This document shows, one piece after another, positions 9,258 to 59,345 of a DNA stretch of 64,000 bases. The stretch spans positions 1 to 64,000 of the IMG/VR virus record IMGVR_UViG_3300020718_000011; one strand, given 5' to 3'. Both the position numbers and the translations under genes were made by a program. The notes under the pieces were generated by a model. The model was not told the origin of the DNA, did no database searches, and saw only the letters and a list, made by a program, of their open reading frames with translations. Positions within the stretch are counted from its first letter, which is position 1, and every line of letters begins with the position of its first letter. This DNA is from a virus (Duplodnaviria; Heunggongvirae; Uroviricota; Caudoviricetes).

Positions 9258-9268
9258 TCTATATATCA
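9258..9268 (-). promoter_or_regulatory. class-B ATATATA box
   Basis: Minus strand reads gatatatagataATG, immediately before the HNH gene start at 9255. Confidence 0.3.
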
Positions 9269-9291
9269 AATAGCTTTTAAGATTTTATATA

Positions 9292-9346
9292 ATCTTTAAC
9301 ATTTAGTATTTTTTTATTCAAAAACAATTTATTACTTTTGTCTTAT
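9292..9346 (+). promoter_or_regulatory. class-A phage promoter
   Basis: atctttaacatttagtatttttttattcaaaaacaatttattacttttgtcttata; -7 box TACTTTTG; drives 9359. Confidence 0.6.
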
Positions 9347-9358
9347 AAATTTTAATCA

Positions 9359-9868
9359 ATGAGTGAGATTATAAAAAACTTAAAGAAAGGTTCCTTACTG
9401 ATAGCAGAACCCGATATGATTGATCCTGTCTTTTCCCAATCGGTTATATTAATTTGTAACCATGACGAGGATGGAACATTGGGATTGATTCTTAATCAGG
9501 TGTTTCCTCAAACGATGGAAGCTATGACTGGTATGACAATCCATTCAGGTTTTCCTGTTAATGTTGGAGGCCCAATGACAGAGGGTGGCGGAATAATGCT
9601 CCATCATGATAACTCCCTCTATGGTGGTGATGAAATAGCCAATGGAATTTATATTGGAACGAAGGATTCCCTCAGAGCATTAGAGGGATTTATATCACAC
9701 CAGGATGCCAACAAGAACAAGGCAAAAATATACGTGGGATATGCCGGTTGGGGTAAGGGCTCTTTGGAGTTAGAAATCCTTGACGGCAATTGGGCGGTAA
9801 AAGAAAGTACCGTAGACATAGTTTTTAATTCAAATGCAGATACGCTCTGGACAACATTATCCAAATGA
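9359..9868 (+). CDS. YqgE/AlgH (UPF0301) family protein
   Basis: GSLLIAEP.M.DP.F..SVILIC.H...G..GLILN...GGP.....I.LH....GYAGWG.G.LE.EIL.G.W matches YqgE/AlgH across its length. Confidence 0.6.
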   Translation: MSEIIKNLKKGSLLIAEPDMIDPVFSQSVILICNHDEDGTLGLILNQVFPQTMEAMTGMTIHSGFPVNVGGPMTEGGGIMLHHDNSLYGGDEIANGIYIGTKDSLRALEGFISHQDANKNKAKIYVGYAGWGKGSLELEILDGNWAVKESTVDIVFNSNADTLWTTLSK

Positions 9869-10344
9869 CTATAGACAAATTCTTCGAAACCTTAGACAAA
9901 TTCTACACAAAAGTAGGACATACTCCTTGTTGTATAAAATTCTATGCACAACAGAGTACCTTCAGCTTTGAGGTTCATGACAGCACACAAACTTGTTATA
10001 CTGATGAATCCTTAATCTATGAATCTCAGGTTTATTGGTGGAGATCACCAAAGGATATGGACAAGATTATTAAGAATATCAGGTCTTTCTGTAACGACTT
10101 TAAAGAGAAAGCAAAGAAATGGCCAGTTTGGGTTGGAGCATTACCAGATAATGCTCCAGATGGGCCAGTACATTATAATCCATTACCTACCAAAAGGGCT
10201 GAAGTTTATACCGGAGAGAATGCAATTCCCTTCTTCTATACGGAAAAGGCTTGCCAAAACTGGTGTGATAATCATACCTACCAGGGCGAATGGCTATGGG
10301 AAGGAAAAGATCATAGACACAAAAAACCGAAGGTAAAAAAATGA
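9865..10344 (+). CDS. hypothetical protein
   Basis: 159 aa, Cys/Trp-rich with basic C-terminus; ATGA overlap upstream. Confidence 0.45.
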   Translation: MTIDKFFETLDKFYTKVGHTPCCIKFYAQQSTFSFEVHDSTQTCYTDESLIYESQVYWWRSPKDMDKIIKNIRSFCNDFKEKAKKWPVWVGALPDNAPDGPVHYNPLPTKRAEVYTGENAIPFFYTEKACQNWCDNHTYQGEWLWEGKDHRHKKPKVKK

Positions 10345-10970
10345 TGTGGAACGAACAAGAAGCTGATGTTTACCTAGAAAAGGTATTAACAAATCTCGAA
10401 AGAATTAAACCATTTGAGGTAACAGTTCTTACTGGAGCCAATGGTTCTGGTAAATCATTAGTTCGTAAGGTCCTACCACAAAGGATGGCAGAGGAATTAA
10501 ATATACCAAAGGAAAGGGTTATAGGATCTACCTCGATGGAAAGAAGAATGGGAACACCATTCCTAAGTGATAGCCCATGGCAGCCAACCTCTATGGAAAC
10601 ATGGAATCAGATACGCCAAATCTTAAATCAACTGGATCGTTATATTGTTATAGATGAACCGGAAATTGGTACTGACGAGGATGTCCAAATGGCAATCATA
10701 GGTAAAATAAATGATGCGGTAAAGGAAGTTTATGACAAAGGGGATTTTAAAGGTTGCCTTATCATTACCCATAGCAAATTATTTGTTCGCCTTATCAGAC
10801 ATCACCAATTTATAAACCTTAATGGTTTAAGTGAGGATGAATGGCTAGATCGGTTACCAGTAAGAGCAGATCTGGAAGAATTAAAACATAATACTCACGA
10901 ATTAAAACATAATACTCACGAATTATTTCTGGCGGTAGAACGTCGAATTAAAGCTAATAAAGATAAGTAA
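10341..10970 (+). CDS. P-loop ATPase (ABC/AAA-like)
   Basis: Walker A LTGANGSGKS, Walker B YIVIDEPEIGTDED, H-loop IITHS; C-terminal in-frame ELKHNTH tandem duplication. Confidence 0.55.
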   Translation: MMWNEQEADVYLEKVLTNLERIKPFEVTVLTGANGSGKSLVRKVLPQRMAEELNIPKERVIGSTSMERRMGTPFLSDSPWQPTSMETWNQIRQILNQLDRYIVIDEPEIGTDEDVQMAIIGKINDAVKEVYDKGDFKGCLIITHSKLFVRLIRHHQFINLNGLSEDEWLDRLPVRADLEELKHNTHELKHNTHELFLAVERRIKANKDK

Positions 10971-11530
10971 TGGACCAAGAAAATACACTTCATTTAGTAA
11001 AAATATTTGCCGATATTGCTCATGGCGAGCAAAAACGGAAGTATACAGGAGAAAGGTATATTGTTCATCCAGTTCGTGTAATGGAAATTTGCAAAACGGT
11101 TACGGATGATATTCCAACATTAGTTGGTGCATTATTACATGATGTGTTTGAAGATACTACTACAACCGAGGCTGAGGTAAGAAAATTTCTAAGGGAATTA
11201 ATGACAGAGGAAGAGACCGAAGAAGTAATATTGATCATCCACGAACTTACCGACGAATTCATCAAAGAAAAATACCCTCAGTGGAATAGGGAAAAAAGGA
11301 AAAAATTCGAGGCGGAAAGACTCGGAACGATTACTGCAAAATCCCAGACTATTAAATATGCGGATGTGTATGATAATACAGAGGACATCCTTGCCTATGA
11401 TCGCAAATTTTCCTTTACCTATGTTCCAGAGGCTATGGATATGATGACCCAAATGAAACGGGGCAATAAAACATTACGAAAGAAAGCGCTGGAAGGCATA
11501 ATGGTAGCACTTGAAAAACTAGATCTCTAA
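10970..11530 (+). CDS. HD-domain (p)ppGpp hydrolase-like protein (SpoT/Mesh1 type)
   Basis: AHGEQKRKYTGERYIVHPVRV ... ALLHDVFEDT matches the SpoT/RelA hydrolase HD motifs. Confidence 0.65.
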   Translation: MDQENTLHLVKIFADIAHGEQKRKYTGERYIVHPVRVMEICKTVTDDIPTLVGALLHDVFEDTTTTEAEVRKFLRELMTEEETEEVILIIHELTDEFIKEKYPQWNREKRKKFEAERLGTITAKSQTIKYADVYDNTEDILAYDRKFSFTYVPEAMDMMTQMKRGNKTLRKKALEGIMVALEKLDL

Positions 11531-16622: not shown

Positions 16623-17836
16623 CAGAAAAACAAATTGCAGTAGATTATTTCTGCGAACCTGATAAGATTGATGAGAATGCTAAAGCCCAATTAGACCAGT
16701 ATAGTAAAATGCCGGGATTGGAGAAGCTTTGTGCTTTCCCTGACATCCACTTTTGTGACGAGAAAGCCATTCCAGTAGGTGTGGCTTTCTCTACTCGGGG
16801 TATATTCTATCCACTCGTAACCGGCAAAGATGTTGGGTGTGGTGTTGGCTATGCCCGAATAGGAAAAAAGTATTTACTAAAACCTTTTGATAAGAGCAAA
16901 CATTACAATGCTTTGGAACGGGCTCATCGTGATATGACCGACGAAGGATTGGGGGGAGGAAATCATTTTCTATCTTTGGAAGAGGATGACGAATATCTTT
17001 ATGTCATTTGCCATACTGGTACAAGGAATAGGGGTATAGCTCTTTACCAAGAAGGCTATCAAATGGTAAAAGAATACTCCAATGAAATTGGGGAGGAGGT
17101 TAAGTATGTTTCCTGGGAATGGATGAGAGAGAAACATCCAGAATACTTAATGAGCGTTTTGAGAATTCCGGATTATGCAACCAAGCGCAGGGCGGATTTC
17201 GTATTCAAAACAATAACCTTCCTTCAAAAGAATGGGTATCTGGAAAACACAAAGCCCATAGAAAAAGATTACTTGTCCCGAGATTATTGGATTAAATCAA
17301 TAATGGATGAATACCATCCTGATCTTGGTATACCAGGGAAGGAGTGGCTCCCAAAGACAAAAAGGACTCCAATTGAAATAAATGGGATACCTTATGAGTG
17401 GCATGATTCGATGCACAATCATTTAGAATTCAAAGAAGATGGATCAATAATACACAGGAAAGGAAGTACGGAAATAAATCCTGGCGATGAGGTAGCTATT
17501 CCCCTTTCGATGACCAGGGGAACATTGATAGTAAAGGTTCATCCGTTTCATGATATAACAGGAGCACTTAATTCTTGTTCTCATGGAGCAGGTAGAAAGC
17601 TATCACGATTTGATTCCATGAAACATTGGCGAACAGTACTGAAGGCTAAGGAAAGAAAAGCATATGAGGAAAGGTTTTCGGAGCTACTTGATAAGAGTGG
17701 GAAATTTCCTTCTGGATACCTCCAGGAATTTGACTACGCATACAAAGATTCGTCGGACATTCTGACGATGCAACCATATTTAAGAAAGGTAACTCAAACA
17801 ATACCTATTGTAACTATTAAATACACAGAAATCTAA
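16619..17836 (+). CDS. rtcB: RNA-splicing ligase RtcB
   Basis: GKDVGCGVGYA, GGGNHFLSLEED, ICHTGTRNRG, WHDSMHNH and SHGAGRKLSR line up with RtcB metal/GTP motifs (GvDIGCGm, GGGNHF, HSGSRG, HNhA, HGAGR); 405 aa. Confidence 0.75.
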   Translation: MTEKQIAVDYFCEPDKIDENAKAQLDQYSKMPGLEKLCAFPDIHFCDEKAIPVGVAFSTRGIFYPLVTGKDVGCGVGYARIGKKYLLKPFDKSKHYNALERAHRDMTDEGLGGGNHFLSLEEDDEYLYVICHTGTRNRGIALYQEGYQMVKEYSNEIGEEVKYVSWEWMREKHPEYLMSVLRIPDYATKRRADFVFKTITFLQKNGYLENTKPIEKDYLSRDYWIKSIMDEYHPDLGIPGKEWLPKTKRTPIEINGIPYEWHDSMHNHLEFKEDGSIIHRKGSTEINPGDEVAIPLSMTRGTLIVKVHPFHDITGALNSCSHGAGRKLSRFDSMKHWRTVLKAKERKAYEERFSELLDKSGKFPSGYLQEFDYAYKDSSDILTMQPYLRKVTQTIPIVTIKYTEI

Positions 17837-18121
17837 TTTGATGATAGAGAAGATATTAATATGTTTTATTGTTCCTATCTTATATGTAGTAATAATGAAA
17901 ACAATTATAAAAATAGATGCAGATCGACAGCCACATCTATTATATATATCCTTTATTATTACTCTGTTTATTCAAATGGCTGTAGTTTATCATTTAAAAT
18001 GATGTAATGAAAAAGGTAGAAGTCAACGCAGGGAATTTCCAAAAACAATTGGCCATTACGAATATTATTGATACCGAATATTATAAAAATAACGACACTT
18101 ACTTTAATTTAGTAGAACAAG

Positions 18122-18871
18122 ATGGCACAGATAACTAATTTAGATACAATGACCTTAGATATTACGAAGCCTTTAGTTCTGCAAGATCAGGAATTAGAGT
18201 TTCGTAAGTTATCATTATTGACTGGTTATAATGGGGCAGGTAAATCTTTTATTCAGGTAAGTGCATTTGTTCTATGCCAGGTAGGAAATGTGATAGTAGC
18301 TGGGGGAAAGGACGAGGAATTAAAAATGTCTGCCCAATTCATCATTGATACCTGTTTTGATAGTAAGGAGATTACAGGATTACTTAGCTGTAAGTTTGAT
18401 AATGATGCCCTACTCCGCATAGTAATGGCCGAAGGAAAGGTAGTTTATGTTTACTTCGATGGATTCGCGGATGTAAAATATATTCCTTCTGTTACCTATA
18501 TGTCCTCTGCAATGAGAACTTTCAATGCAATTAAAAGTTATCTTGTTGCACGGAAGATGGTAATGAAAGCTGTGAATGGTGACATGAATCAATTGGTCGG
18601 AACATTAGTAGAGGACTTCAAACTATATGATGTAATGTATATTGAAGGCCTCATTATGAAGATGCCAAAGGTTGCGGATGAAAAGGTGATGAAATTCTTA
18701 GATTCATTTGAGCTAAAAACAAAGGTTGATGTTGTGTCATTCGGTGTTGACCTGGAAAAATCCGAATTCTATCTAATTGAAAAAAAGGACGGAGAAGAAA
18801 AAACAACTTACTTGTCTCAGATGAGCGTAGGTAATCAGGCTATTTATAATATGATGTTAGCAAACGCTTAA
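18122..18871 (+). CDS. P-loop NTPase-like protein (Walker A, ABC-signature-like, no clear Walker B)
   Basis: LLTGYNGAGKSF Walker A; C-terminal YLSQMSVGNQ resembles the ABC LSGGQ signature; no hhhhDE seen. Confidence 0.45.
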   Translation: MAQITNLDTMTLDITKPLVLQDQELEFRKLSLLTGYNGAGKSFIQVSAFVLCQVGNVIVAGGKDEELKMSAQFIIDTCFDSKEITGLLSCKFDNDALLRIVMAEGKVVYVYFDGFADVKYIPSVTYMSSAMRTFNAIKSYLVARKMVMKAVNGDMNQLVGTLVEDFKLYDVMYIEGLIMKMPKVADEKVMKFLDSFELKTKVDVVSFGVDLEKSEFYLIEKKDGEEKTTYLSQMSVGNQAIYNMMLANA

Positions 18872-20652: not shown

Positions 20653-20731
20653 TCTAGTTTCAGTTTGAATAGAAATCTATTAACTATTACATACTTAATT
20701 TCATTATAATAATTGGTAATATATACAGGAT

Positions 20732-23656: not shown

Positions 23657-25159
23657 TTAATCATAATAGTAATCTAATACCACATTATAGGCGAGTAGAT
23701 TTCCAGTATAATTTCCATCTACATCTTTTTCTCTCCAGAAACTAATCTCTCCTCCTTGCCCTCTATTTCCTATAGAAAATGGATCGGTTATAGGAGTTCC
23801 ATCATACCAAGTAGCTCCCCAGTTTCCAGGACCGAAATATTGGATTGTTCCAGCAGGAACTGTTATTTTAAAGTAATCAGGTAGCCACTGAAAGTTAGCA
23901 ATTACCCAAACCGTTGTATCTGAGGTTCCATCTCCTCCACCAATTACTATTTCTCCTGTCCAGTGTGAATATTGGTCAATATTTGCATCTATTAGAAATC
24001 CGTCCTGTATATAAAAAGTTCTTCTTAATGTACTTATACCTTCTGTCAAATTTACTGTTCCATAAAATGGCTGGTCTAAATAAATTACATCCCAATTCCA
24101 AGGTCTCCCAGTAAATGTACCAGATACTACTTGTCCTGCTTGCAAAGCACTTACGTCTAATATAACCTGATTATTTAATTCTACTCCATTTAATGAACAG
24201 TAAGATCCATTTGAGTTTATATATGAATATCCCCTAAAAGCAGATGCCTCCATAGATATATTAGCATTAACATAATTACTTCCTCCATCCTGTGAAAGAT
24301 CATTATCCCAAAAATTATCATTATTGAAAGGAAATGGATTATCGCTATAATGTGTTGACTTATTGTTATTAGAATCCCATTCTAATGAAGGTGAGGAAGA
24401 TTGGTCTTGTCCCCAAATTCCCCCATCTAAAAAATATTTTACGTTTCCAAAATAACCAAATGACAACGGAGGGGTATCTCCAGATTCTACTACCAATGTA
24501 ATTATAGTTGTACTATAATTTGTCTGGTCTATTGTATTCATCTCATATAGGTAGATATTGGTATTGTAATCAGTATACCAATTATCTTGATATCCATTAG
24601 TAAAATTACTAATTAACGTTGTCAATAGATTTGTTGATTGGTCAAATTCTATAGTATTTGATATTTGTGTTGATCCTATCATTAGATGGAATGCCCCGCT
24701 AGTATCTCCAGAATAACCACCTATTATTATTTCCCCTGGAATATATAAGGGTCTCTTAATTAAAATATTTTGATTAACTAACCCTTGTTTTACGTCTACG
24801 TAAATTCCAGAGCCAAAATCAGAGAAGATATCAGTAATATTATATTTACCATTAGCATAAAAACCCAAATTCTCAAATTGAGAAAGTGTTAGAGGAATAT
24901 ACCCATCATAAGTTAGAATCCTCTTTGAAAGGGATCTACTATAAGTTCCATCATATAGTAGTGTTAACTGATCACTATTATTTCCATCATACCTCGCAAT
25001 TAAATTAACGTTACCATCATCTATTAATATCTGATTAGAACTTATTGAATTGACATTAGCTGATTGGACCATTATCTGAATTCCATTAGCTGGTACTAAA
25101 GTAAATGGAAATCCCGAATTAGGTGCATTGTTAATTTGATTTATTATATATGTTGGCAT
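23657..25159 (-). CDS. tail fibre / receptor-binding-like protein
   Basis: 500 aa, Asn/Gly/Ser/Thr/Tyr-rich beta-rich composition typical of fibres; in the fibre operon. Confidence 0.5.
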   Translation of the reverse strand: MPTYIINQINNAPNSGFPFTLVPANGIQIMVQSANVNSISSNQILIDDGNVNLIARYDGNNSDQLTLLYDGTYSRSLSKRILTYDGYIPLTLSQFENLGFYANGKYNITDIFSDFGSGIYVDVKQGLVNQNILIKRPLYIPGEIIIGGYSGDTSGAFHLMIGSTQISNTIEFDQSTNLLTTLISNFTNGYQDNWYTDYNTNIYLYEMNTIDQTNYSTTIITLVVESGDTPPLSFGYFGNVKYFLDGGIWGQDQSSSPSLEWDSNNNKSTHYSDNPFPFNNDNFWDNDLSQDGGSNYVNANISMEASAFRGYSYINSNGSYCSLNGVELNNQVILDVSALQAGQVVSGTFTGRPWNWDVIYLDQPFYGTVNLTEGISTLRRTFYIQDGFLIDANIDQYSHWTGEIVIGGGDGTSDTTVWVIANFQWLPDYFKITVPAGTIQYFGPGNWGATWYDGTPITDPFSIGNRGQGGEISFWREKDVDGNYTGNLLAYNVVLDYYYD

Positions 25160-25644
25160 TTTAAATGGTCATAAATTATATTCACTATATTATTTTCTTT
25201 TATACCTTTATTTGGATACTTTGCCCAGGCTAGGTTAGTTACATCTATATATAGATCATCTACTACAACCCAATTTTCTACCTCATTATTTTGTAGCCAA
25301 TTCAAGATTTCTAATTTCCTATTTTCCTGTATAGATAAACCATTAAATCTAATTATAGGAGTAAATCCTATTGGTCTTTTAATAACCCCTTGTTTTATAT
25401 AAAAATCCCCCATATAATCCAGGGATACTCCAAATCTCCAATCAGAGGATATTACTATCTCACTATTTGTTTCTTCTAATATTCGATTTAATATTTTAAC
25501 TGCATCCTTATCAAAATCTTCAAATTTATTATGGCCTTTTAATTCGGAATATGTTGGAAGACTTGTTTTCTCCCTTATGATTTCCTTATTACTAAGACAC
25601 ATAATGCCATAATGGTCAAGAAATAAAACATTCATAATTTTCAA
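25144..25644 (-). CDS. HAD-fold-like protein (motif I degenerate)
   Basis: NVLFLDHYGIM (DxDG-like, second Asp missing) and WVVVDDLYID (HAD motif IV-like); overlaps the 3' end of the Hint-containing fibre gene. Confidence 0.35.
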   Translation of the reverse strand: MKIMNVLFLDHYGIMCLSNKEIIREKTSLPTYSELKGHNKFEDFDKDAVKILNRILEETNSEIVISSDWRFGVSLDYMGDFYIKQGVIKRPIGFTPIIRFNGLSIQENRKLEILNWLQNNEVENWVVVDDLYIDVTNLAWAKYPNKGIKENNIVNIIYDHLKCQHI

Positions 25645-27442
25645 ATTTTAATAAATTGTTAACATATTTTTCTATAGCAGATAAATCAAATACTTGTTCT
25701 GCTAATCTAAGCCCTTCATAATATTTATTTGGTATGTTTTCAAATTCATTCCTTTCTCTCATATTCCTGTTATCTTTAATAAATTTCATATTCTCTATAG
25801 GGTAAATATTATTATATCTGCATGAAGTTAATATATCATTTCCAAATAGATTTATGTGACCAGAAGTAATAATATTATAGTATTCTACATCCTCATTTAT
25901 AACTTCTTTACTTATTAGTTTAATTTCTTTACTATGTGAATTGAATGTGGTTGTTCCAATTGGAGTATCCTCTGTCATGGGGTATGTAAACATCCCCCTC
26001 TCTTTATTAAAAATCCTATGTTGACTAATGGTTTTTAATTCAGTCCCGTCACTAAAGGTCAATAGGTTATATTTGTTAGAAGTTCCTGGTAATTTAATCC
26101 ATAATGGCTTTGCAGAATCAAATCTTCCTTCATCAAAGTTCCAAACCATTAATGCATCCTCATAAGTAATATCTTCAATATTCTTATAGGAATAGTTAGA
26201 AAGTAATATTCTCGTACCTTTGGCTAAACATAATTCTAATATATTAATAATACCACAATATTGATAACCACTAAGATCTAATGTAGTTCCTGATAAAACT
26301 TGATCAATATAAAGGTTTACCGAGAAGGTAGAAATAGTATTGGTTAATACACATTTAGAATAGCTAATATCTGTAGGGAATGTGAAAACGCTCATATCAT
26401 TTGAATAAGAACACTCATAATGAGAGGTATCATTATTTAAAGAAATAGTACTAAAAGACCATCCATACCCGAATCCATTAAACTCGCAGTGCATAACATC
26501 ACCTTGGTTATTATAATGACTTACATAGGAATTGTTTTTATAGGTTGCATAAATTTCACCAGAATTACTATCTGCCCAGAAATATGATGTATCCTCTACA
26601 TATATTACTATAGTTCCGCTATTATTATTCGTTTGTATTCCTGAACTAAATCCCCTAACGTGACCTTCTATAGATCCAGTATTATAAGGAGCATAATAAG
26701 CCTGATAGTTGCCATTAACATCAACAAATATACTTCCCTGGTTACTATATAGATATACGTAAGCAGATGTTCCAGTTATCGTCCCAGTTATCGTCCCAGA
26801 ATTATTTAATGTGTCTATAGTTACTTCGTAAGTATTTATAATAAAATCGTGTATATTATCATCTCCCCATTGGAAATTAGTTAAATTACTACCACCTAAT
26901 GGTATTCTATTCCCTCTCTTATCTTCTCTCCAATATAATACATCCGATCCAAAATTATATTGTACTTTATCCCAATCCAAAATATATCCTTCCGTTAAAT
27001 TAGCAGTGAGTATACTATAAGCATTTCCGTTCTGATCTGGGGGTGTACCATTTATAGAAGTAATATCAACTACTTCATAATGAGAATTGTTCCATATAAC
27101 AATATCAGCATTATTATATCCGCTCTCTGAAAGTTGTTTCCAGACACCCCTAATATTGGAAGACAATTGACCCACCAGCTGAAAATCTGCTACATAAAAA
27201 CTTGCTATTGCATTCTCATCAATCGTATTAGGGGTTGTACAAAAAGCTATTAGCCCCGCATCTCCTCTATCCGAAATAAATATATGATAACCAGCAGGCA
27301 ATAGATTATTACCCTGGGTAGTTACCCAGTTTGCATAGGTATCGCTAATGATACCACCACCAGAGGATAATAATTCAAAATTATTATCTAAATCCGCCAT
27401 AGTTAATCTTGATCCCTTATCCCTTTTTAATATTAGACTCAT
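25616..27442 (-). CDS. tail-fibre-like protein with C-terminal Hint/intein-like domain plus 68-aa C-terminal module
   Basis: N-terminal MSLILKRDKGSRLTMADLDNNFELL fibre motif; Asn-rich repeats; aa 405-540 CLAKGTRILL..DGTELKTISQHRIF..VEYYNIITSGHINLFGNDILTS-C match intein/Hint blocks A, B, F, G. Confidence 0.6.
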   Translation of the reverse strand: MSLILKRDKGSRLTMADLDNNFELLSSGGGIISDTYANWVTTQGNNLLPAGYHIFISDRGDAGLIAFCTTPNTIDENAIASFYVADFQLVGQLSSNIRGVWKQLSESGYNNADIVIWNNSHYEVVDITSINGTPPDQNGNAYSILTANLTEGYILDWDKVQYNFGSDVLYWREDKRGNRIPLGGSNLTNFQWGDDNIHDFIINTYEVTIDTLNNSGTITGTITGTSAYVYLYSNQGSIFVDVNGNYQAYYAPYNTGSIEGHVRGFSSGIQTNNNSGTIVIYVEDTSYFWADSNSGEIYATYKNNSYVSHYNNQGDVMHCEFNGFGYGWSFSTISLNNDTSHYECSYSNDMSVFTFPTDISYSKCVLTNTISTFSVNLYIDQVLSGTTLDLSGYQYCGIINILELCLAKGTRILLSNYSYKNIEDITYEDALMVWNFDEGRFDSAKPLWIKLPGTSNKYNLLTFSDGTELKTISQHRIFNKERGMFTYPMTEDTPIGTTTFNSHSKEIKLISKEVINEDVEYYNIITSGHINLFGNDILTSCRYNNIYPIENMKFIKDNRNMRERNEFENIPNKYYEGLRLAEQVFDLSAIEKYVNNLLKFENYECFIS

Positions 27443-27453
27443 TTTAACTTCTT

Positions 27454-27780
27454 TTATTTAACTACTGCCATAAAAGGGGAATTGTTTACCTTATGTCCAA
27501 TATCACCTCTAACAATATCTCCAACTTTTAATTGATAGTTAACATCGATAACAATATCACCATTAACTGTTATCTCATAATTTTTTATCATATTAACTGC
27601 ATCTTGTAATGGAATAGATATTAATTCTGCAACAAAATTAGGAAATGCTTCAATAGACAATCTCCTTGTCTTATCTGTTACCTTTGGGTAATATTTTTTA
27701 TACTTACTATTAAAATCCCTTCTTATCTGATCCTTTTGTTGGGCTTTAGATAAAATACCGGATCCATTTGAATTAGTCAT
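27454..27780 (-). CDS. small protein, possible S4-like fold
   Basis: C-terminal ITVNGDIVIDVNYQLKVGDIV resembles the S4 motif (VNG..V....L..GD.I); sits between two fibre genes. Confidence 0.3.
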   Translation of the reverse strand: MTNSNGSGILSKAQQKDQIRRDFNSKYKKYYPKVTDKTRRLSIEAFPNFVAELISIPLQDAVNMIKNYEITVNGDIVIDVNYQLKVGDIVRGDIGHKVNNSPFMAVVK

Positions 27781-29506
27781 TTATATAAGAGTAATTTATA
27801 TTCTTTAGTGTGATCTCATAATATATTGTACCACCTGTTATTGTATTTGTTGCTACTGATGCTAATATTTGTTGGTAATTATCAGCAGGATTAACAGTAT
27901 AGCTAACTTCACCATTAGACAAATCAAAATACCAAATTTTGTTATTAAGATTACTAAATACACCATTTGTTGAATTAACAATGCAAGATGAATTACCAAC
28001 ACTAAGTCCCATTGTAAATACTGGATCATCCCCATCTGCCTTAGTGCCATCTATTAATTGTATTACTCCCCTTTCTATATAAAATCCATATGGTACTGGG
28101 ATTAATGGAATAGTTACAGAACCGATTGACCCTGCTCCACTATCACCATTAAACCCGAATTGTCCTTGATATCTTATAGTATTATAATGATAGTCGGTTG
28201 ATGAAAAAGTAAGATTATTGATTGTACCAAAATCACCCATATATAAATAAAAACCTTGTAAGGATTGATTATTTATATATAAATTAGTTCCCACTATGGT
28301 ACTAAGTCCAGAACCAATAAGAGTACTCAATTCAAAACTACTACTAGTTATGTTTATTCCATAAATATAACTTCCATTGGTAGTAATACTATCCATATTA
28401 CTATTTGTTAATGTTATATTATTCCAATAACTACTATTAGTTAATTCTAAATAATAAACATTTGAATTGGATAGGGTTGTACCCTGAAAACTAGACTCAT
28501 TATTCATATTAAGATTATAAATACTTGACCCAGTAAAAGTACAATTATAAAATTGGGAATAATTATTTATTGTTATTTGGTAGATACTTGTATTTGTTAA
28601 ATTGAGTTCCCCCAGATCAGAATTATTGTTAATGGAAATATTATATAAGGATGAACTATCTATAGTAAGACCAACAATAGAAGAACCATTTGTTACTAAT
28701 ATATCTTCTAGATATGGATTACTACCAATTAATTGATATGCTCCAAAGATAGAATAGTTTAATAGTGTTATTGCTTGTATAGAACCAGTAATATTGTTTA
28801 GGCATTCAAAATAGGAGTCCTCTATATTACAAGAACCAATACCCCTTGATCCATTATAAGGATCCCCCCACCTAAAAACAGCTATTGGATTAAATCCACA
28901 AAAAAACCAGTTTCTTGTTTCATAAGTAATAGAAACTCTATTATTAGAAACAATTTCATGCCTGGATGAGATGAAGTCATCAGCAAAGTCATAGGTAATT
29001 TCATCCCATGAAATATTATAATAAGAAGATATATTATCCCCCGTCGGAGGTAGAGAAATCCAGTCAGTAGTTTCAAGAGTAAAATAATCAACACTAGTTC
29101 CAGTAGATCCTGTTAAATTTTGCCATAATGTTCCACCATAGATAACAACATCATTTATATTATAAGATCCATTATAATCCCAAACCGGAAAATTTAAATA
29201 TTGGGGATTATAAAATTGACCAATCCCATTTGGAGAAAACTGATTTGTAGATAAACCATTAATTAAAATATTAGTACCCCCATACAAAGAAATATCTACC
29301 CCTGATATTATATAAATTTGTCCTGGAATAACACTTGAATTGGATACAAGGGTTTGGGCATCAGTTAATGATAGAGAAGTTATTCCTATAAAGGAAGAAT
29401 CATCATCGGTTATATAGTTAATACAATCCCTTAAATAGGTAAAATTACCATCCATTTCCACGTATGTAAGCTTTGAACCTTTATCTTGTCTTAATATTAG
29501 ACCCAT
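27773..29506 (-). CDS. tail fibre / tailspike-like protein with Asn-rich beta-helix-type repeats
   Basis: N-terminal MGLILRQDKGSKLTYVEMDGNFTYL; long run of N-x-S/T repeat units (NISINNNSDLGELNLTNTSIYQITINNYS...). Confidence 0.55.
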   Translation of the reverse strand: MGLILRQDKGSKLTYVEMDGNFTYLRDCINYITDDDSSFIGITSLSLTDAQTLVSNSSVIPGQIYIISGVDISLYGGTNILINGLSTNQFSPNGIGQFYNPQYLNFPVWDYNGSYNINDVVIYGGTLWQNLTGSTGTSVDYFTLETTDWISLPPTGDNISSYYNISWDEITYDFADDFISSRHEIVSNNRVSITYETRNWFFCGFNPIAVFRWGDPYNGSRGIGSCNIEDSYFECLNNITGSIQAITLLNYSIFGAYQLIGSNPYLEDILVTNGSSIVGLTIDSSSLYNISINNNSDLGELNLTNTSIYQITINNYSQFYNCTFTGSSIYNLNMNNESSFQGTTLSNSNVYYLELTNSSYWNNITLTNSNMDSITTNGSYIYGINITSSSFELSTLIGSGLSTIVGTNLYINNQSLQGFYLYMGDFGTINNLTFSSTDYHYNTIRYQGQFGFNGDSGAGSIGSVTIPLIPVPYGFYIERGVIQLIDGTKADGDDPVFTMGLSVGNSSCIVNSTNGVFSNLNNKIWYFDLSNGEVSYTVNPADNYQQILASVATNTITGGTIYYEITLKNINYSYIND

Positions 29507-29701: not shown

Positions 29702-29747
29702 GATAGTATTATATATCTGTTATATAATATTCCTTTTTGTCAGTATT

Positions 29748-30542: not shown

Positions 30543-30552
30543 GTATATATAG
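30543..30552. promoter_or_regulatory. palindromic TATATATA box in 27-nt divergent intergenic region
   Basis: aggtatatatagaaaaataatcaagc lies between divergent family genes 30539(-) and 30567(+). Confidence 0.3.
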
Positions 30553-31798: not shown

Positions 31799-31839
31799 AT
31801 TAATATCTATCCATGATAACTATTAATATCTTTTATATT

Positions 31840-37810: not shown

Positions 37811-38230
37811 ATGGCTAGAAGTAAATATAAAGAAATAAAAGACGCATCCCCATATTTTATTTTCTCTTTTGTGTTAATGATATTAACATTTTTGTTTATA
37901 ATTATAACTAAAGAAGAAAAAATGGAAATAAGTCATACCAGCTTATTCAAGTTAATTATTACTATTTCCCTTCTTTTTTCTATTTTTCTATTTTCAATAG
38001 GGGAATCATATGATCCAACATTAGATAGTGAGTATACCAAACTTAATCATATAAAGGATGGATTGGATTTTTTAATTGATGGTGATATAAGAAATTATAT
38101 AGAAACATCTCACAAATATTCTATTCCTAATTATGATAATTTAGTATTGAATTTAGCTAAAAAGAAAGGAATTGGGTTAAACATACTTAGAAAAAGAATT
38201 AAAGCTTCCAAAATATTAAATAGAAAATAA
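37811..38230 (+). CDS. membrane protein, weak member of the LLKRK C-tail family
   Basis: Two N-terminal TM helices; C-terminus GIGLNILRKRIKASKILNRK. Confidence 0.45.
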   Translation: MARSKYKEIKDASPYFIFSFVLMILTFLFIIITKEEKMEISHTSLFKLIITISLLFSIFLFSIGESYDPTLDSEYTKLNHIKDGLDFLIDGDIRNYIETSHKYSIPNYDNLVLNLAKKKGIGLNILRKRIKASKILNRK

Positions 38231-38706: not shown

Positions 38707-39004
38707 AATTTTCTTTTATATTTTTAGTTTATTTTATTTAAAAGTTTCTCCTTGGACTATGGATTACATATTTGTTAAATCGTCTATTCCTTTCCAAAAT
38801 TCTATAGTCTAATAAAGGTAAGGGAACTAAATATATACATAATAAATAAAATTCTTTAATAAATATAATATGATACTCATTAACATTATTTATATACTAT
38901 CCGGGATTTCCTTCTCAACCTGGTTTATGAAGGAAGCTATTTATGACCAGTTTGGAAAATAGCTTTAATTCATTTAAAAATGATATAAAATATGCCCTTG
39001 GAAT

Positions 39005-39717: not shown

Positions 39718-39996
39718 TATCCTTATATATTTCAATACTCCTTGGATAAATACTACCATGAAACATCTTTTAGAATGGGTAAAATATGTTAAGATCCATC
39801 GGAGGGATTTCGATCCGCCTAGAAGGATTAAATATGTCAAACCATATAATGATTTAGTACAGGATAAGGAATACGAAACCACATTTAAACATAAATCTCC
39901 AATAGACCATAAATGGTATTATCATATACCAGAATTAAATGGAGCATATAGAACTAATGCTTTTGTGGATATTTCGGTATAAATGACTTTAACATA

Positions 39997-43775: not shown

Positions 43776-43863
43776 TTAGTACTGAGCCTCTAAATAATGG
43801 AGTTCCCTAAAAAGGCTCCATTATTTAGTGTAAATGTATATGGGTTTCATCATATATACTTAT

Positions 43864-48385: not shown

Positions 48386-48420
48386 TACTTATATATATTC
48401 GATATCTACCTTAAATATTT

Positions 48421-51795: not shown

Positions 51796-51820
51796 GTCTA
51801 TTATATTTTATCTATATATC

Positions 51821-51983: not shown

Positions 51984-52526
51984 ATGGAAAAGACAGCATC
52001 GGCCAACACGGCCACAGACACAAAAACAACCGGAGCACAGGGTGCAGAGGTTGTAGTAACAGAGCAGCCTGCTGCAAGCAGCGTTAGCATCGTTCCAACA
52101 GCGGTAGCCGTAGAGGTACCAAAAGTTCGCCTGTTCTGGCAGAAAGCGTGCGGATCTATGAAGGATTCTACCCTTACGCCAATTAAAGACGACGAAGTAT
52201 TTGTAAGGACCTCTCACCAGGTAGGCGTTATCCCTGCCGGCGCACCGGATGGCACTGCACCAGTTGCAGAGACCGTTTACAGCATGAAGCGCGGTAAAAG
52301 GATCTACTACACACCTTCTTCTTTCATTACCGATGCACAGCGTCTCGCTGCTGATACCGCGACTGACCTCAAGGTAAAAGAGAAAGAGGCAGCAGCCAAG
52401 GTAAAGGCTGATGAAAAAGCCAAGAAAGAGCAGGCGAAAAAGGATGCGGCAGCAGCCGGTCCAAAAGTAGTAGCTGGCCCAACAGTGGTAGCGGCTCCGG
52501 CAACAATTACCGAAAAATCTCTCTAA
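51984..52526 (+). CDS. Ala/Lys/Thr-rich protein, paralog A of a duplicated pair
   Basis: Core VPKVRLFWQKACGS..TLTPIKDDEVFVRT.H.VGVIPAGA..GTAPV..VYSMKRGKRIYYTPSSFITDAQR with AKVKADEKAKKEQAKKDAAAAGPKVVAG tail; GC and codon usage above background; own promoter and bidirectional terminator. Confidence 0.55.
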   Translation: MEKTASANTATDTKTTGAQGAEVVVTEQPAASSVSIVPTAVAVEVPKVRLFWQKACGSMKDSTLTPIKDDEVFVRTSHQVGVIPAGAPDGTAPVAETVYSMKRGKRIYYTPSSFITDAQRLAADTATDLKVKEKEAAAKVKADEKAKKEQAKKDAAAAGPKVVAGPTVVAAPATITEKSL

Positions 52527-52543: not shown

Positions 52544-52582
52544 AAAAGAAAAACATCAGCTTAGTGCTGGTGTTTTTCTTTT
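52544..52582. terminator. bidirectional intrinsic terminator between convergent genes
   Basis: aaaagaaaaacatcagc-ttagt-gctggtgtttttctttt: about 17-bp stem with A-rich 5' arm and U-rich 3' arm, between 51984-52526(+) and 52561-53394(-). Confidence 0.6.
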
Positions 52583-53394
52583 GTCCAATTTAATTTATTT
52601 CGTTTGCTTTGATTATCAGGAGCCCATAATGGCTGGAAATTTGTATAATGGTTCAATCTTATAATTTCTTTTTGGGTAGTAGCGGAACTAGATGGTATAA
52701 TATGATCAATTTGCCATAGATTTCTATTATCCCACGACATTCCTTCCCAAAATTGAGATTCTATATGAATTTTAAATTGTTCTATGGTACATCCTAATAT
52801 TTCTTGGGAACGTGAATTTTTACTAAATCCATTATTTTTTAGGGATTGCCTTATTAGGTTACTTGTCTCTTTAGAAAACTTAAATAAGGGATCTCTTTTT
52901 AATCTCTCTTTTATATAATTACCATTTCTTTTAGCGATGGCTTTTTTATTTTCTATATAATATTGTTTTTTATCAATGGAGACTTTATTCTTGTTTTTTA
53001 GATATTTCTCTTTATCCTTTTCTATCCTTTTCTCCTTATGTAATTGATATGATTTTTTGTTATTAGATAATATTTTCTCTTTATTTAATTGATAGAGCTC
53101 TCTTCTACGTGCTAATTTTTCTTCCCTATTTGCTTGATAGAGTTCTTTTTTACGAGTTAATTCCTTATCCTTATTTAGTTTATAATATTCTCTTTTATTG
53201 GAATTTATTTCATCCCTTTTTAATTGTCTATTTTCTCTCCTTCTTTTTAATTTCTCTCCCTTGTTTAATTTATAAAGCTCATTTCTATTAGATAATTTTT
53301 CCTCGTGTGTCATATAGTATTTTATATTAACTATATATTTAAGTTTCAACCGGGGTATGCTTGTGTTTATCCAATCCATCTTTGATCGATTCAT
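52561..53394 (-). CDS. HNH homing endonuclease
   Basis: DPLFKF..ILGCTIE..W..DHIIPSSSA..NHYTNFQPLW..DN..KRN; long Lys/Glu/Tyr repeat N-terminus; likely true start MTHEEK (about 53313), which is preceded by an ATATATA box. Confidence 0.8.
   Translation of the reverse strand: MNRSKMDWINTSIPRLKLKYIVNIKYYMTHEEKLSNRNELYKLNKGEKLKRRRENRQLKRDEINSNKREYYKLNKDKELTRKKELYQANREEKLARRRELYQLNKEKILSNNKKSYQLHKEKRIEKDKEKYLKNKNKVSIDKKQYYIENKKAIAKRNGNYIKERLKRDPLFKFSKETSNLIRQSLKNNGFSKNSRSQEILGCTIEQFKIHIESQFWEGMSWDNRNLWQIDHIIPSSSATTQKEIIRLNHYTNFQPLWAPDNQSKRNKLNWTKEKHQH
53329..53340 (-). promoter_or_regulatory. class-B ATATATA box
   Basis: Minus strand reads aaatatatagttaatataaaatactatATG before the probable internal start of HNH 52561-53394. 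Confidence 0.3.
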
Positions 53395-53468
53395 TGGTCG
53401 AGGGAGCGCCCCGCAATTCAGTAAGAAATTTAATAAAATCAGTAAAAGTGGAAAGATATATAGGGTAT

Positions 53469-54908: not shown

Positions 54909-54919
54909 GATATATAGAT
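54909..54919 (+). promoter_or_regulatory. class-B ATATATA box (T4-late-like)
   Basis: gatatatagat ends 3 nt before the ATG of GIY-YIG gene 54922. Confidence 0.3.
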
Positions 54920-56939: not shown

Positions 56940-57653
56940 ATGAGCAACAACAAACACAGTAAAGGACGCGGCGCAGCCGGTCACACAACAGGCAGCGAGC
57001 ACACTTCTGCTGAACACACTGACACTGCAATCGACACTGCAATCGACACTGCAGAACACACTGACACCGCAACGGAAGAAACCAAAACGGAAACTACCGA
57101 GGCCAGCGCAGAACACACCGACCCCGCAACAGAAACTGCAGAACACACAGAGCCAGCACCAGAAGTGAAAGTTACTGAAACACCTGCTGCTTCTACCCTG
57201 TCTATCGTGCCAACCGCAGTGGCCAAGGAAGTACCAAAAGTTCGTCTCTTCTGGCAGAAAGCGTGCGGATCAATAAAAGAAAGCACTCTCACCCCTATCA
57301 AGGATGATGAAGTATTCGTTCGCACTGCCCACACCGTAGGTGTCATCCCTGCAGGTGCAGCAGAAGGTACTGCACCTGTTATCGAAATCGTTTACAGCAT
57401 GAAGCGCGGTAAAAGGATCTACTACACACCTTCTTCTTTCATTACCGATGCACAGCGCGTTGCAGCCGACCTGGCCACTAATACGAAGAACGCAGAAAAG
57501 GAAACCGCAGCCAAAGTAAAGGCTGATGAAAAACTGAAAAAAGAGCAGGCGAAAAAGGACGCAGCCGCAGCCGGTCCTAAGGTAGTAGCGGGAGCAACAA
57601 TAGTTGCCGCACCAGCAGCAGCCACAGAAACCGCTACCGAAGAAGTAAAATAA
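56940..57653 (+). CDS. Ala/Lys/Thr-rich protein, paralog B
   Basis: Same conserved core and AKVKADEKLKKEQAKKDAAAAGPKVVAG tail as 51984-52526, plus N-terminal AEHTDTAIDTAIDTAEHTDTA repeats; tandem promoters upstream; terminator downstream. Confidence 0.55.
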   Translation: MSNNKHSKGRGAAGHTTGSEHTSAEHTDTAIDTAIDTAEHTDTATEETKTETTEASAEHTDPATETAEHTEPAPEVKVTETPAASTLSIVPTAVAKEVPKVRLFWQKACGSIKESTLTPIKDDEVFVRTAHTVGVIPAGAAEGTAPVIEIVYSMKRGKRIYYTPSSFITDAQRVAADLATNTKNAEKETAAKVKADEKLKKEQAKKDAAAAGPKVVAGATIVAAPAAATETATEEVK

Positions 57654-57812: not shown

Positions 57813-58400
57813 CTACAAAATTTTATTACTTTTCCATATGTTATCAGAAGCCCATAATGGTTGAAAATTACTGTAATGGTTTAATTTAATTATCTCATCC
57901 TCGTTGGTTGCACTATCTATTGGTATGATATGGTCAAAATGCCATTTACCATAATTAGACCAATCCATTCCTTCCGTAAATTTATTCTCAATCCATATTT
58001 TAAATTCCTCATAAGAGCAGCCAAGTATTTGGTAAGTAGAGGATTTTTTCGTATAACCATTTCTACGAATACTTTGTGCTATGGTTCTTTTAATCTTTTG
58101 GTGTAATTTATAAAGTGGATCTACCTTCATTCTTTCTCTAAGACGTAATTTCCTTCTACTACTTCTCTCTTCTTTTGTTAGTGGTATTTTAGGTTCCTTT
58201 TTTGGAAGTTTTTCGTAGCATCTCTTTTTGGCAGCTACGCATTTCTCTTTATTGTTTTTATAATACTCTTTTTGGTATTCCTTCTTACTTTCCTTATTTC
58301 TTTCATACCATTCTGCCATTCCAGTCCTTTTGTGCATAATTTTTATTTTTATATATCTAATGTTTACGTCTCGAAAACCAGGAATTCTGTGTTTATACAC
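57813..58400 (-). CDS. HNH homing endonuclease
   Basis: DPLYKL..ILGCSYEEFKIW..DHIIPIDSA..NHYSNFQPLW..DN..KSN; true start probably an internal Met (MHKRTG/MAEWYER), which is preceded by an ATATATA box. Confidence 0.75.
   Translation of the reverse strand: MYKHRIPGFRDVNIRYIKIKIMHKRTGMAEWYERNKESKKEYQKEYYKNNKEKCVAAKKRCYEKLPKKEPKIPLTKEERSSRRKLRLRERMKVDPLYKLHQKIKRTIAQSIRRNGYTKKSSTYQILGCSYEEFKIWIENKFTEGMDWSNYGKWHFDHIIPIDSATNEDEIIKLNHYSNFQPLWASDNIWKSNKIL
58349..58360 (-). promoter_or_regulatory. class-B ATATATA box
   Basis: Minus strand reads agatatataaaaataaaaattATG before the internal start of HNH 57813-58400. Confidence 0.3.
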
Positions 58401-58403
58401 ATT

Positions 58404-58461
58404 CTTTAACGTTATCTTAACAAATAGTATTTCACAATACAGAAACGATTTGTTATATTTG
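58404..58461 (+). promoter_or_regulatory. class-A phage promoter with no downstream protein gene
   Basis: ttctttaacgttatcttaacaaatagtatttcacaatacagaaacgatttgttatatttg; TATATTTG; about 190 nt later an intrinsic terminator, no substantial ORF. Confidence 0.45.
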
Positions 58462-58464
58462 CTT

Positions 58465-58661
58465 TTTAATAATAATTATTTAAGCGTACCTAAATTGTTT
58501 GACTATGATAAGGAATAAAGGTTCTCCATAAGTAGTAACTTATTTATTATATTATATTTAGATTATGTCCGAAGACCGAATAAGTCCAGAGTAGGAAAAG
58601 ATTAATTTAGTTTGAGAATGGCAGGATAGAATTAGTTACTATTCTGCCATTTTTGTTTTTT
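58465..58661 (+). ncRNA. candidate about 190-nt non-coding transcript (promoter to terminator, no ORF)
   Basis: Class-A promoter 58404-58461 followed by only tiny ORFs (under 12 codons) and the strong terminator at 58617-58661. Confidence 0.3.
58617..58661 (+). terminator. plus-strand intrinsic terminator
   Basis: tggcaggatag-aattagtta-ctattctgcca: 11-bp stem (one G.U), then TTTTTGTTTTTT; overlaps the 3' end of minus-strand GIY-YIG gene. Confidence 0.6.
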
Positions 58662-59330
58662 AGAGTGAGCTATCTTTAATGAATTACTCATCTTTTGTTT
58701 GGCTTCAGGAGTATTAAATTTTTCCTTCATCATAAGTTTTAATTTTAACTTATGCTCATCAGATAATGGTTTTCTTTTAGCCCTATTATTACCTTCCCTA
58801 ATTTTTTGTTTAGTCTCTTCAGATATAGGATTTCTAGTTTTACCCTTTAATGAGATGGATATTTTCTTCTTAGTTTCATCCGTAACAAATTTACGTTTAT
58901 CTATTTTTGGTTGATCTATTTTAGCCTTAGCTATTTTTGGTTTACTATCTCTATCTTTTATTAATCCCAATAAATTTCTATTTTTATTTCCTTTTAATGA
59001 ATTGGATATTTTTATTTTCATCTCTTCGGATATACTAGTAGTTCCACCACCTCCTTCCGTACAATTTAATCCATCCTTAAATGAGTTAAATTTAGAAATC
59101 CAGTATATCTCTCTTTCAAAAAGTATAGGGTCCTTATTATTATCCAATGTGAGTTCTTCTATTACTTCTTTAGTATGATTCTCCCATCCATATTTATTTA
59201 CGGACCAATATAATTTATGTTGTTTCCTATCAACTCCATATTTATATCTTTCGTTTATACTATTTTTAGTTGTACACCCTATATAAATACGTCCGGTTGG
59301 GCTAGTAATTTTATAGATAAGTCCTTTCAT
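58632..59330 (-). CDS. GIY-YIG homing endonuclease with NUMOD3-like repeats
   Basis: MKGLIYKITSPTGRIYIGCT, KYGWENHTKEVIEEL, DGLNCTEGGGG; repeated SEEMKIKISNSLKG / TDETKKKISISLKG / SEETKQKIREGN modules. Confidence 0.8.
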   Translation of the reverse strand: MKGLIYKITSPTGRIYIGCTTKNSINERYKYGVDRKQHKLYWSVNKYGWENHTKEVIEELTLDNNKDPILFEREIYWISKFNSFKDGLNCTEGGGGTTSISEEMKIKISNSLKGNKNRNLLGLIKDRDSKPKIAKAKIDQPKIDKRKFVTDETKKKISISLKGKTRNPISEETKQKIREGNNRAKRKPLSDEHKLKLKLMMKEKFNTPEAKQKMSNSLKIAHSKKQKWQNSN

Positions 59331-59332
59331 GT

Positions 59333-59345
59333 TACTATATATTGC
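59333..59345 (-). promoter_or_regulatory. class-B ATATATA box
   Basis: Minus strand reads caatatatagtaacATG before GIY-YIG 59330. Confidence 0.3.

Follow-up and report, generated by a model that had tools for sequence, protein, structure and literature searches.

We analyzed a 64,000-nucleotide (nt) stretch of DNA from a virus of the Caudoviricetes (positions 1 to 64,000 of IMG/VR record IMGVR_UViG_3300020718_000011; hereafter, the window), and we focused on the heptamer ATATATA (hereafter, the box), which is found directly before 14 gene starts of the window. The results show that selection acts on ATATATA as a strictly defined and strand-specific signal, which is concentrated at gene starts and purged elsewhere, and that it marks an alternative to the host-type promoter, of which the core sequence is TAnnTTTG. 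We consider that the box is probably (with a probability of about 0.65) a compact promoter specified by the phage for its non-early genes, resembling the late promoter of phage T4 in architecture and not in sequence.

An initial annotation of this DNA had listed 13 box sites and had stated that the box is present at all six homing-endonuclease genes. All 13 sites were present with the quoted sequence and start codon, and the box was seen at each of the six endonuclease genes. For the internal starts proposed at 53313, 58337 and 43864, gene calls in the databases give matching products of 250, 174 and 225 amino acids (aa), respectively.

Concentration of the box at gene starts

The distance from the end of the box to the ATG codon in the 14 cases was 4, 4, 4, 5, 5, 5, 6, 6, 6, 8, 12, 15, 17 and 18 nt. 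We took the 35 nt before each start as an upstream window and tested 119 such windows. ATATATA was the top-ranked upstream 7-mer (p = 7e-11). The box was present in 14 of the 119 upstream windows, compared with 5.0 +/- 2.0 in dinucleotide shuffles of the same windows, and none of 2000 shuffles reached 14. The initial annotation had suggested such a comparison, and it had also named a possible objection, namely that ATATATA might be similarly frequent at random positions of an AT-rich genome. The objection fails, since the heptamer is depleted in the window as a whole: 28 copies were counted on both strands, against 55.7 +/- 9.8 in shuffles. Among all 128 A/T-only 7-mers of the window, ATATATA had the lowest observed/expected ratio (0.44). 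In the early-type blocks (46.9 kb, including 17 kb outside the window), there were 3 overlapping copies forming one cluster, against 22-32 expected.

The association with starts belongs to the exact word. In 143 kb of sequence from this phage and two relatives, 49% of the ATATATA copies were sense-oriented and lay no more than 30 nt upstream of a start, whereas the corresponding value for each of the 21 single-substitution variants was 0-17% (14% for ATAAATA). That is, none of the variants was start-associated. The related words TTATATA, CTATATA and ATATATT occurred in the window at the expected frequency. Avoidance of a TATATA restriction site was ruled out as the cause of the depletion, because TTATATA and CTATATA are at expectation.

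A profile of the 14 aligned sites showed conservation of the heptamer and of two flanking positions, and of nothing from -45 to -2 upstream. The base before the box was G or A in 10 of the 14 sites, and the base after it was G, A or C and never T. Neither a -35 partner nor any other conserved upstream element was found in these sites, nor was a conserved base 5-7 nt downstream of the box. A CCCGG-like patch upstream was considered as a -35 element and dropped, because its distance to the box varies from 9 to 22 nt. When the spacings of the window and of five related huge-phage loci were pooled, there were 9, 6 and 5 cases at 4, 5 and 6 nt, respectively, with a tail at 12-27 nt. Thus 4 nt is both the floor and the mode of the spacing, and no case was found at 0-3 nt (P about 0.008).

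Placement of the box at transcription-unit heads

The sigma-A promoter of Bacteroidota consists of TTTG at -33 and a -7 element, TAnnTTTG, at -12 to -5 (PMC9723704). In the window, TAnnTTTG precedes many plus-strand gene arrays, within a conserved module of about 65 bp. This sets the host phylum as Bacteroidota and defines a first, host-type promoter class.

The box was found at 14 of the 62 transcription-unit heads, in the sense orientation, and at none of the 56 operon-internal genes (p = 7e-5). TAnnTTTG (within 60 nt) was found at 14 heads and at no internal gene, and the overlap between these heads and the 14 box-bearing heads was zero. The two signals are mutually exclusive, and the initial annotation was right to describe the box as a distinct second class of signal at gene starts. 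In one case, a single palindromic copy, TATATATA, serves both genes of a 27-bp divergent intergenic spacer, and the L108 orthologue of the gene starting at 30539 keeps the box (L108 is a locus of a related phage described below).

The box in other genomes

Related huge-phage contigs measure 330-474 kb; two of them, L095 (401 kb) and L098 (330 kb), were reached through endonuclease homologues. ATATATA was independently the top upstream 7-mer in the window, L095, L096, L098 and L108. In L096, which is another part of the same phage, boxes lie 4-27 nt before five starts, namely those of three endonuclease genes and two non-endonuclease operon heads. Seven to eight of the 9 copies in L095 precede starts, as do 12 of the 25 copies in L098, where the genes include those for an endolysin, ribonucleotide reductase, a methyltransferase and GIY-YIG proteins. 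L108 is syntenic with the window, and its tailspike-like protein is 41% identical to that of the window. It keeps the box at three orthologous heads, and the flanking spacers diverge. At the head of the tailspike-like operon, the window and L108 share a 12-nt block, AGATATATAATA, and the 8-nt spacing without change.

As a control, we used 80 unrelated AT-rich viral contigs (466 kb). ATATATA was equally frequent in them, but only 12.5% of the 224 copies were near starts. The corresponding figures were 1 of 22 copies in Flavobacterium phage 11b and 3 of 17 in the first 50 kb of the Tenacibaculum jumbo phage PTm1.

Most endonuclease genes in the other loci carry the box; those at L098 10001, L095 17059 and L096 13268 do not. 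The closest box-bearing relatives of the GIY-YIG gene lie in the viral contigs L002, L030 and L067, where the box is 2-6 nt before the ATG. No other called gene has a box in L002 and L067, and one other gene start has it in L030. Two equally close GIY-YIG relatives have no box. For the HNH-like gene, the relatives in IMG/VR were too distant and too differently built for comparison. The initial annotation had proposed that the box may travel with mobile endonuclease cassettes. The relatives in L002, L030 and L067 lend some support to the idea that cassettes carry the box. The box is nevertheless genome-wide and not restricted to homing endonucleases, since it also precedes the tailspike-like operon, a gene family and a protease gene.

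Another endonuclease gene of GIY-YIG-like type was noticed at L087 995-1853, 10 kb to the left of the window. The word GATATATAG lies 124 nt upstream of it, not adjoining the ATG, and is the sole ATATATA in that 9.5-kb flank. The leader of this gene contains two nested inverted repeats (cctgcaagct...agcttgcagg and ctagatccctagtc...gactagggat).

Genes behind the box

Judged by their GIY-YIG or His-Me (HNH/EndoVII) domains and NUMOD-type repeats, the six endonuclease genes are real. The gene starting at 54922 matches GIY-YIG (1.7e-6) and NUMOD3 (1e-30) in Pfam, and the gene at 58632-59330 matches NUMOD3 (Pfam) and the homing-endonuclease families phrog_314 and phrog_5123. The four HNH-like genes are paralogues with 41-52% identity. 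Those at 8656, 51178 and 57813 have matches to phrog_1035, "endonuclease VII" (as low as 4e-13). The remaining one, 52561-53313, is 41-50% identical to its paralogues and matches only phrog_28061, a family of no known function that all four HNH-like genes match. One of the paralogues shows a weak Pfam HNH match (E = 0.009). All contigs that hold the endonuclease-neighbouring gene show one arrangement, and no variants with or without the endonuclease were found among them; copies of the paralogues are scattered in this and related phages.

Two other genes, 51984-52526 and 56940-57653, lie in the 9-kb stretch that holds five of the endonuclease genes. They are 84% identical over 148 residues, have the same variant of the host-type promoter, and are each flanked by endonuclease genes. 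This pair may be a duplicated target gene or a product of homing recombination.

The box also stands before an eight-gene minus-strand operon (29701->23051), which includes a 577-aa tailspike-like protein. This protein was modelled as a parallel beta-helix with a predicted local distance difference test (pLDDT) score of 74 (at least 90 in the helix). The best matches of the model were phage tail fibres, tailspikes and structural proteins of Cellulophaga phages, with low template modelling scores that provide evidence of the fold class only. A small gene of the same operon, 27454-27780, has a 105-aa orthologue in relatives (L108 11769-12086) that matches the S4 RNA-binding domain. Elsewhere in the phage, L087 197-910 encodes a 237-aa protein ending in the C-terminal domain of ribosomal protein L7/L12 (Pfam).

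The protease starting at 43864 matched only generic DegP-like proteins in a search for relatives. Most box-headed genes had no match in the PHROG, Pfam and PDB sequence searches, and a homologue search with a 268-aa family member returned only the query itself. This member belongs to a divergent family (hereafter, the MK family) that the box also heads. Its N-terminus follows the pattern MK[HNT][LI][KQ]x[FY], often continued by FLNE, and its C-terminus often reads KLTKAxxLLKRK. Eight proteins have this N-terminus, and five of them are preceded by a box of their own (p = 5e-4). The capsid-targeting sequence carried by T4's packaged internal proteins is MKTYQEFIAE, which is cut after E (PMC8442874). 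The N-terminus of the MK family resembles this sequence, and we offer as a lead that its members may be head proteins that are packaged or ejected. Another possibility is that the first codons, which are conserved (ATGAAACAT...), are a feature of leaderless messages at the RNA level.

Taken together, the content of the box-headed genes suggests non-early, partly virion-related expression; we infer the "late" timing of the class from this gene content alone. The two orphan boxes listed in Table 1 may drive small proteins or non-coding RNAs. The intragenic copies in the tailspike-like operon are either tolerated or serve as internal or antisense starts; the copy at 25247 is kept in L108 at 14722, as codons for D-L-Y-I-D.

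Table 1. Boxes, MK-family genes and host-type promoter modules. Positions refer to the window unless a locus (L number) is given.
Feature	Position	Strand	Context
Box (GATATATAG)	9260..9266	-	4 nt before ATG 9255, EndoVII/HNH-like endonuclease gene 8656-9255
Box	20719..20725	+	6 nt before ATG 20732 (237 aa; MKNLKDINEFLNE... family); orthologous head in L108 keeps the box
Box (GATATATAA)	29710..29716	-	8 nt before ATG 29701, head of eight-gene operon
Palindromic TATATATA	30544..30551	both	4 nt before ATG 30539(-), 15 nt before ATG 30567(+)
Box	39724..39730	-	6 nt before ATG 39717 (191 aa, MKHLKLYEE...)
Box	43852..43858	+	5 nt before ATG 43864, gene for a trypsin-like protease whose signal peptide is of the lipoprotein type
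Box (ATATATATA)	48390..48398	-	4 nt before ATG 48385 (268 aa, MKYIQIFE...; head of 48385->47283)
Box (GATATATAG)	51813..51819	-	17 nt before ATG 51795, EndoVII/HNH-like endonuclease
Box	53332..53338	-	18 nt before ATG 53313 (250 aa), paralogue of the EndoVII/HNH-like endonucleases
Box (GATATATAG, 53455-53463)	53456..53462	+	6 nt before ATG 53469 (117 aa, MKTIKEFDNYTPLNE...); 14th site, not in the initial annotation
Box (GATATATAG)	54910..54916	+	5 nt before ATG 54922, GIY-YIG/NUMOD3 endonuclease
Box	58350..58356	-	12 nt before ATG 58337, EndoVII/HNH-like endonuclease (174 aa)
Box	59336..59342	-	5 nt before ATG 59330, GIY-YIG-type endonuclease with NUMOD3
Orphan ATATATATA	17941..17949		Intergenic (17836-18122); no convincing gene behind it; sole copy in 47 kb of early-type blocks
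Orphan box	38831..38837	+	Intergenic; 32 nt before a 30-codon hydrophobic open reading frame, 38870-38962
Eight intragenic copies	24224-, 24741+, 25151-, 25247+/25252-, 28239+, 28275+/28280-	as marked	All within the tailspike-like operon, 23657..29506(-)
MK family	20732, 29748(-), 30567, 39142(-), 45621(-), 47283(-), 47579(-), 53469	as marked	
MK family, C-terminus only	277-531, 37811-38230		
MK family, other loci	L096 4752-5959; L108 9091, 19083(-); L110 3930, 6907, 7130	as marked	
Host-type promoter modules	upstream of 4955, 9359, 13851, 21982, 31908, 43398, 46581(-), 51984, 56940, 59687, 60114, 63163	as marked	

Genome context and host-type promoter modules

The window is coding-dense and has a G+C content of 33.8% (29% in the intergenic DNA). 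Exact-match look-ups with its proteins led to a 473,921-bp metagenomic contig (ENA ERZ27271905 k141_26427), with near-identical contigs in Trout Bog lake samples. Because these look-ups place the window on a contig of this size, it is judged to be part of the genome of a huge uncultured phage. DNA and protein searches found no relatives among GenBank phages. In IMG/VR there was no close relative, and searches there with the 608-aa protein and with an exact 36-mer from the window gave no match. Scans for tRNAs and with Rfam gave no matches in the window, and no Shine-Dalgarno sequences were found before its starts. A sigma-70 scan returned 78 sites against 77.9 expected, and promoters of the Escherichia coli type are therefore irrelevant here.

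One module of about 65 bp (...TCTTTAACaTTTgGTAtTTTTTTAt..N..TTATTAcATTTGT) recurs at the host-type promoters, and in it the -33 and -7 boxes lie within additional conserved sequence. Assembly breaks apparently fall at these repeats; the contigs L082 and L083 begin at the identical base. The word ATATAAAAG was considered as a second form of the box and dropped, because it is mostly the reverse complement of the conserved far-upstream part of this module. It occurs at 4876-4883(-), 31831-31838(-) and 38714-38721(-), 7-32 nt before three minus-strand genes without an exact box, and in two of the three cases it is part of the reverse complement of the module. The L108 orthologue of the gene at 31798 has a true ATATATA box in place of ATATAAAAG.

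Two other features of this genome were noted. An IS1595-family transposase lies inside it, at window 41390-42286 (DDE_Tnp_IS1595, 1e-26, together with its zinc ribbon). Outside the window, at L096 5971-6740, there are about 750 bp of non-coding DNA that is strikingly G+C-rich within a genome of 34% G+C. This region contains many G/C runs and repeated CTTTAACA/CTTAACA/CCTAACA words, a word common to the host-type promoter module, and it is bounded by outward-pointing ATATATA boxes. Possible roles are those of an origin, a packaging site or a regulatory array.

The box as a probable phage-specified promoter

We favour a promoter with a single element because the box is found at heads only, excludes TAnnTTTG, is purged from both strands, is an exact heptamer and serves both sides of a 27-bp spacer. 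In our proposal, ATATATA (usually G/A-ATATATA-G/A/C) would be the core, and apparently the only element, of a phage-specified transcription class serving non-early genes within a clade of huge phages (330-474 kb contigs) infecting Bacteroidota. An RNA polymerase with phage-altered specificity would recognize the box as a -10/-7-like element. The likeliest reader would be the core polymerase of the host combined with a minimal sigma factor from the phage, similar in type to gp55 of T4, and a phage polymerase seems less likely. It has been reported that the group-2 jumbo phages of Bacteroidetes (Lak, PTm1) have no RNA polymerase and encode minimal sigma factors and a gp33 orthologue (PMC7824862).

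The predicted start of transcription lies about 5 nt beyond the box. The sigma-A box of Flavobacterium psychrophilum extends from -12 to -5 (PMC9723704). If the same geometry holds here, a box followed by 4 nt places +1 on the A of the ATG, and many of the transcripts are therefore predicted to be leaderless. The absence of spacings below 4 nt in the window and the five related loci fits this geometry, since a shorter spacing would lose the start codon. That is, the genes with a spacing of 4-6 nt (about half) would have leaderless mRNAs or leaders of 1-2 nt, and the rest would have leaders of 8-20 nt. The timing of the class would be middle or late. Free-standing endonuclease genes would carry their own box, so that their expression could be independent of, and often antisense to, that of their neighbours.

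Several results weigh against this proposal. Neither motif was found at 34 of the 62 heads. The tight spacing between box and ATG is also compatible with a signal at the mRNA level. The 14 sites are not fully independent, since several of the box-bearing genes are paralogues. The tailspike-like operon (23657-29506) is the only coding DNA in the window with intragenic ATATATA, and its 8 copies persist. The boxes before the ribonucleotide reductase and methyltransferase genes of L098 make the term "late" too narrow. The three smaller contigs with a box at a GIY-YIG gene, two of which have it nowhere else, are awkward if a factor specific to huge phages is needed. Finally, no gene for a sigma factor, gp33, gp55, gp45 or a polymerase was among the Pfam matches of the window and the fetched loci, with about 390 kb of the 473,921-bp genome lying outside the material scanned.

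Alternative explanations

The box might instead be an operator for a DNA-binding regulator of the phage or host, or an RNA-processing site that creates translatable 5' ends, and in either case it would overlap promoters that we failed to recognize. The strict sequence and the palindromic (TA)n core would suit a DNA-binding protein, and the intron endonucleases of T4 do bind operators overlapping their own middle or late promoters (PMC2988022). However, there is no second conserved element near the box to act as the true promoter, and the 27-bp divergent spacer is too small for further elements. The signal is strand-specific relative to the gene despite its nearly palindromic core, and the spacing floor matches promoter geometry (PMC9723704). 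We regard this explanation as unlikely.

Another possibility is that transcription begins elsewhere and the box acts in the mRNA as a translation-initiation element, either an A/U-rich enhancer that takes the place of Shine-Dalgarno pairing in a Bacteroidota host or a site for a phage translation factor or repressor. The clustering of the spacing at 4-6 nt is like that of a ribosome-binding element, Shine-Dalgarno sequences were not found in this genome, and the phage encodes ribosomal-protein-like domains (L12, S4). In addition, Bacteroidia depend on A-rich positions upstream of their starts (PMC6847099). Such an element should, however, be found at operon-internal genes too, since they also need translation, and the box is at none of the 56. 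The depletion extends to both strands and to the inside of genes, where an RNA start signal would be harmless. What is required is the exact heptamer and not A/U richness. The box is exclusive with the host-type promoter box, and its spacing reaches 18-27 nt, and 124 nt at the L087 endonuclease gene. To our knowledge, the 3' tail of 16S rRNA has no complement to ATATATA. On these grounds a role in translation also seems improbable.

The idea that the box is part of the mobile endonuclease cassettes (a cassette end or a homing-related sequence) and occurs elsewhere by chance or through past insertions, would explain why all six endonuclease genes of the window and most of those in other loci have it. 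It would also explain the closest box-bearing GIY-YIG relatives, in which two of the three loci are otherwise without it. As the sole explanation, this idea is largely refuted, and we give it very little weight: 8 of the 14 window sites precede other genes, L108 keeps the box at orthologous non-endonuclease heads, endolysin, ribonucleotide reductase and structural-type operons are headed by it in relatives, and three endonuclease genes (L098 10001, L095 17059 and L096 13268) are without it. Chance in an AT-rich genome (34% G+C, 29% in intergenic regions) can be practically dismissed, since no shuffle of the upstream windows reached the observed count, the heptamer is depleted and not common, its variants and other A/T 7-mers are not start-associated, and unrelated AT-rich phages lack the association.

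Implications

If the box is a phage-specified promoter, it is a sharply defined word that would divide hundreds of unannotated genes into those read by the host polymerase (early) and those under phage direction, and it would help to correct gene starts and delimit operons. It would disclose previously undescribed regulation in huge Bacteroidota phages, which are known only from metagenomes, and it poses the question of which phage factor redirects the unusual polymerase of Bacteroidota. Leaderless messages are predicted to be abundant, which would be an unusual strategy of translation in a phylum where the Shine-Dalgarno sequence is already ignored. It also suggests how mobile endonuclease genes secure their expression wherever they land.

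We further speculate, quite tentatively, that ATATATA-N4-6-ATG is a self-contained portable module, that much of the non-early proteome of this phage clade is made from leaderless mRNAs, and that cassettes carry the module between Bacteroidota phages; we think this wider picture doubtful as a whole. If it is true, the transfer of the module implies a reader common to different Bacteroidota phages, and leaderless late messages might be connected with the ribosomal-protein-like genes of these phages.

Comparison with known systems

The late promoter of T4, TATAAATA, lies at -13 to -6 and is used with the sigma factor gp55, gp33 and the gp45 clamp; it has known variants, for example CTAAATA in phage Aeh1 (PMC1524935). 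The initial annotation had noted a resemblance of the box to this promoter. The resemblance holds for the architecture. In both cases a single short, strictly conserved A/T element without a -35 partner stands at the heads of virion-type (here, tailspike-like) genes and of endonuclease genes and coexists with host-type early promoters, and the very short leaders implied here agree with what had been noted. It does not hold for the sequence or the geometry. The word here is ATATATA, and TATAAATA itself is not enriched in the window (23 copies against about 19 expected, mostly not near starts). The 4-nt floor is incompatible with a box ending at -6: 9 of the pooled sites have 4 nt before the ATG, and therefore such a box would start transcription inside the start codon. 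In addition, the predicted leaders here are mostly 0-2 nt without a Shine-Dalgarno sequence, and in L098 the box also precedes genes of nucleotide metabolism.

The initial annotation had also stated that free-standing endonuclease genes of T4 are often late. According to PMC2988022, half of them are promoterless, and those with a promoter comprise 5 middle and 2 late cases. Because these genes are mostly promoterless or middle, the analogy with T4 needs to be softened on this point. The late promoter of I-TevI lies immediately upstream of its reading frame (PMC2988022). The endonuclease genes of the window resemble I-TevI and the seg/mob genes in having their own putative non-early promoter directly before the reading frame, within or against foreign transcription units. 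They differ in that no hairpin sequestering the start was found here: folding of -60 to +30 at the six endonuclease starts gave z = -0.6 to +0.9.

The sigma-A promoter of Bacteroidota shares with the box the host context and the restriction to transcription-unit heads, and the 4-nt floor fits a box ending at -5. Unlike sigma-A promoters, the box has the sequence ATATATA and no -33 element, and the two boxes never co-occur. ATATATA is not among the six sigma motifs that have been mapped in F. psychrophilum, and the leaders of that species have a median length of 24 nt, with 5.5% of mRNAs being leaderless (PMC9723704).

The early promoter of the AR9 virion polymerase is AAATATATATTAT-N6-G+1 (PMC5312081). 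The early promoters of phiKZ and AR9 resemble the box in being A/T-only elements that contain ATATATA, with a start a few nt downstream, in very large phage genomes. However, they are at least 13 nt long, have a conserved +1, and serve early genes through multisubunit phage polymerases, whereas 7-9 nt are conserved here, the gene content looks late, and strong host-type promoters cover the early-looking genes.

A parallel in form was found in a cultured Bacteroidota jumbo phage. In PTm1 (L112 = AP019524, 1-50000), ATACATA is the top upstream 7-mer, with 9 of its 28 copies upstream of starts. Some copies follow a hairpin-plus-T-run, about 10-25 nt before starts, as at the head completion gene at 155, an ORF at 9393 and the helicase gene at 37029. 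This 7-mer has the same shape as ATATATA, differs from it by one base and has a longer spacing. We found no description of ATACATA in the literature searched, and it may be an analogous phage promoter, in which case the cultured phage would offer a comparison open to experiment. The ATATATA box was likewise not described in that literature, and we regard it as a familiar kind of signal in a new form.

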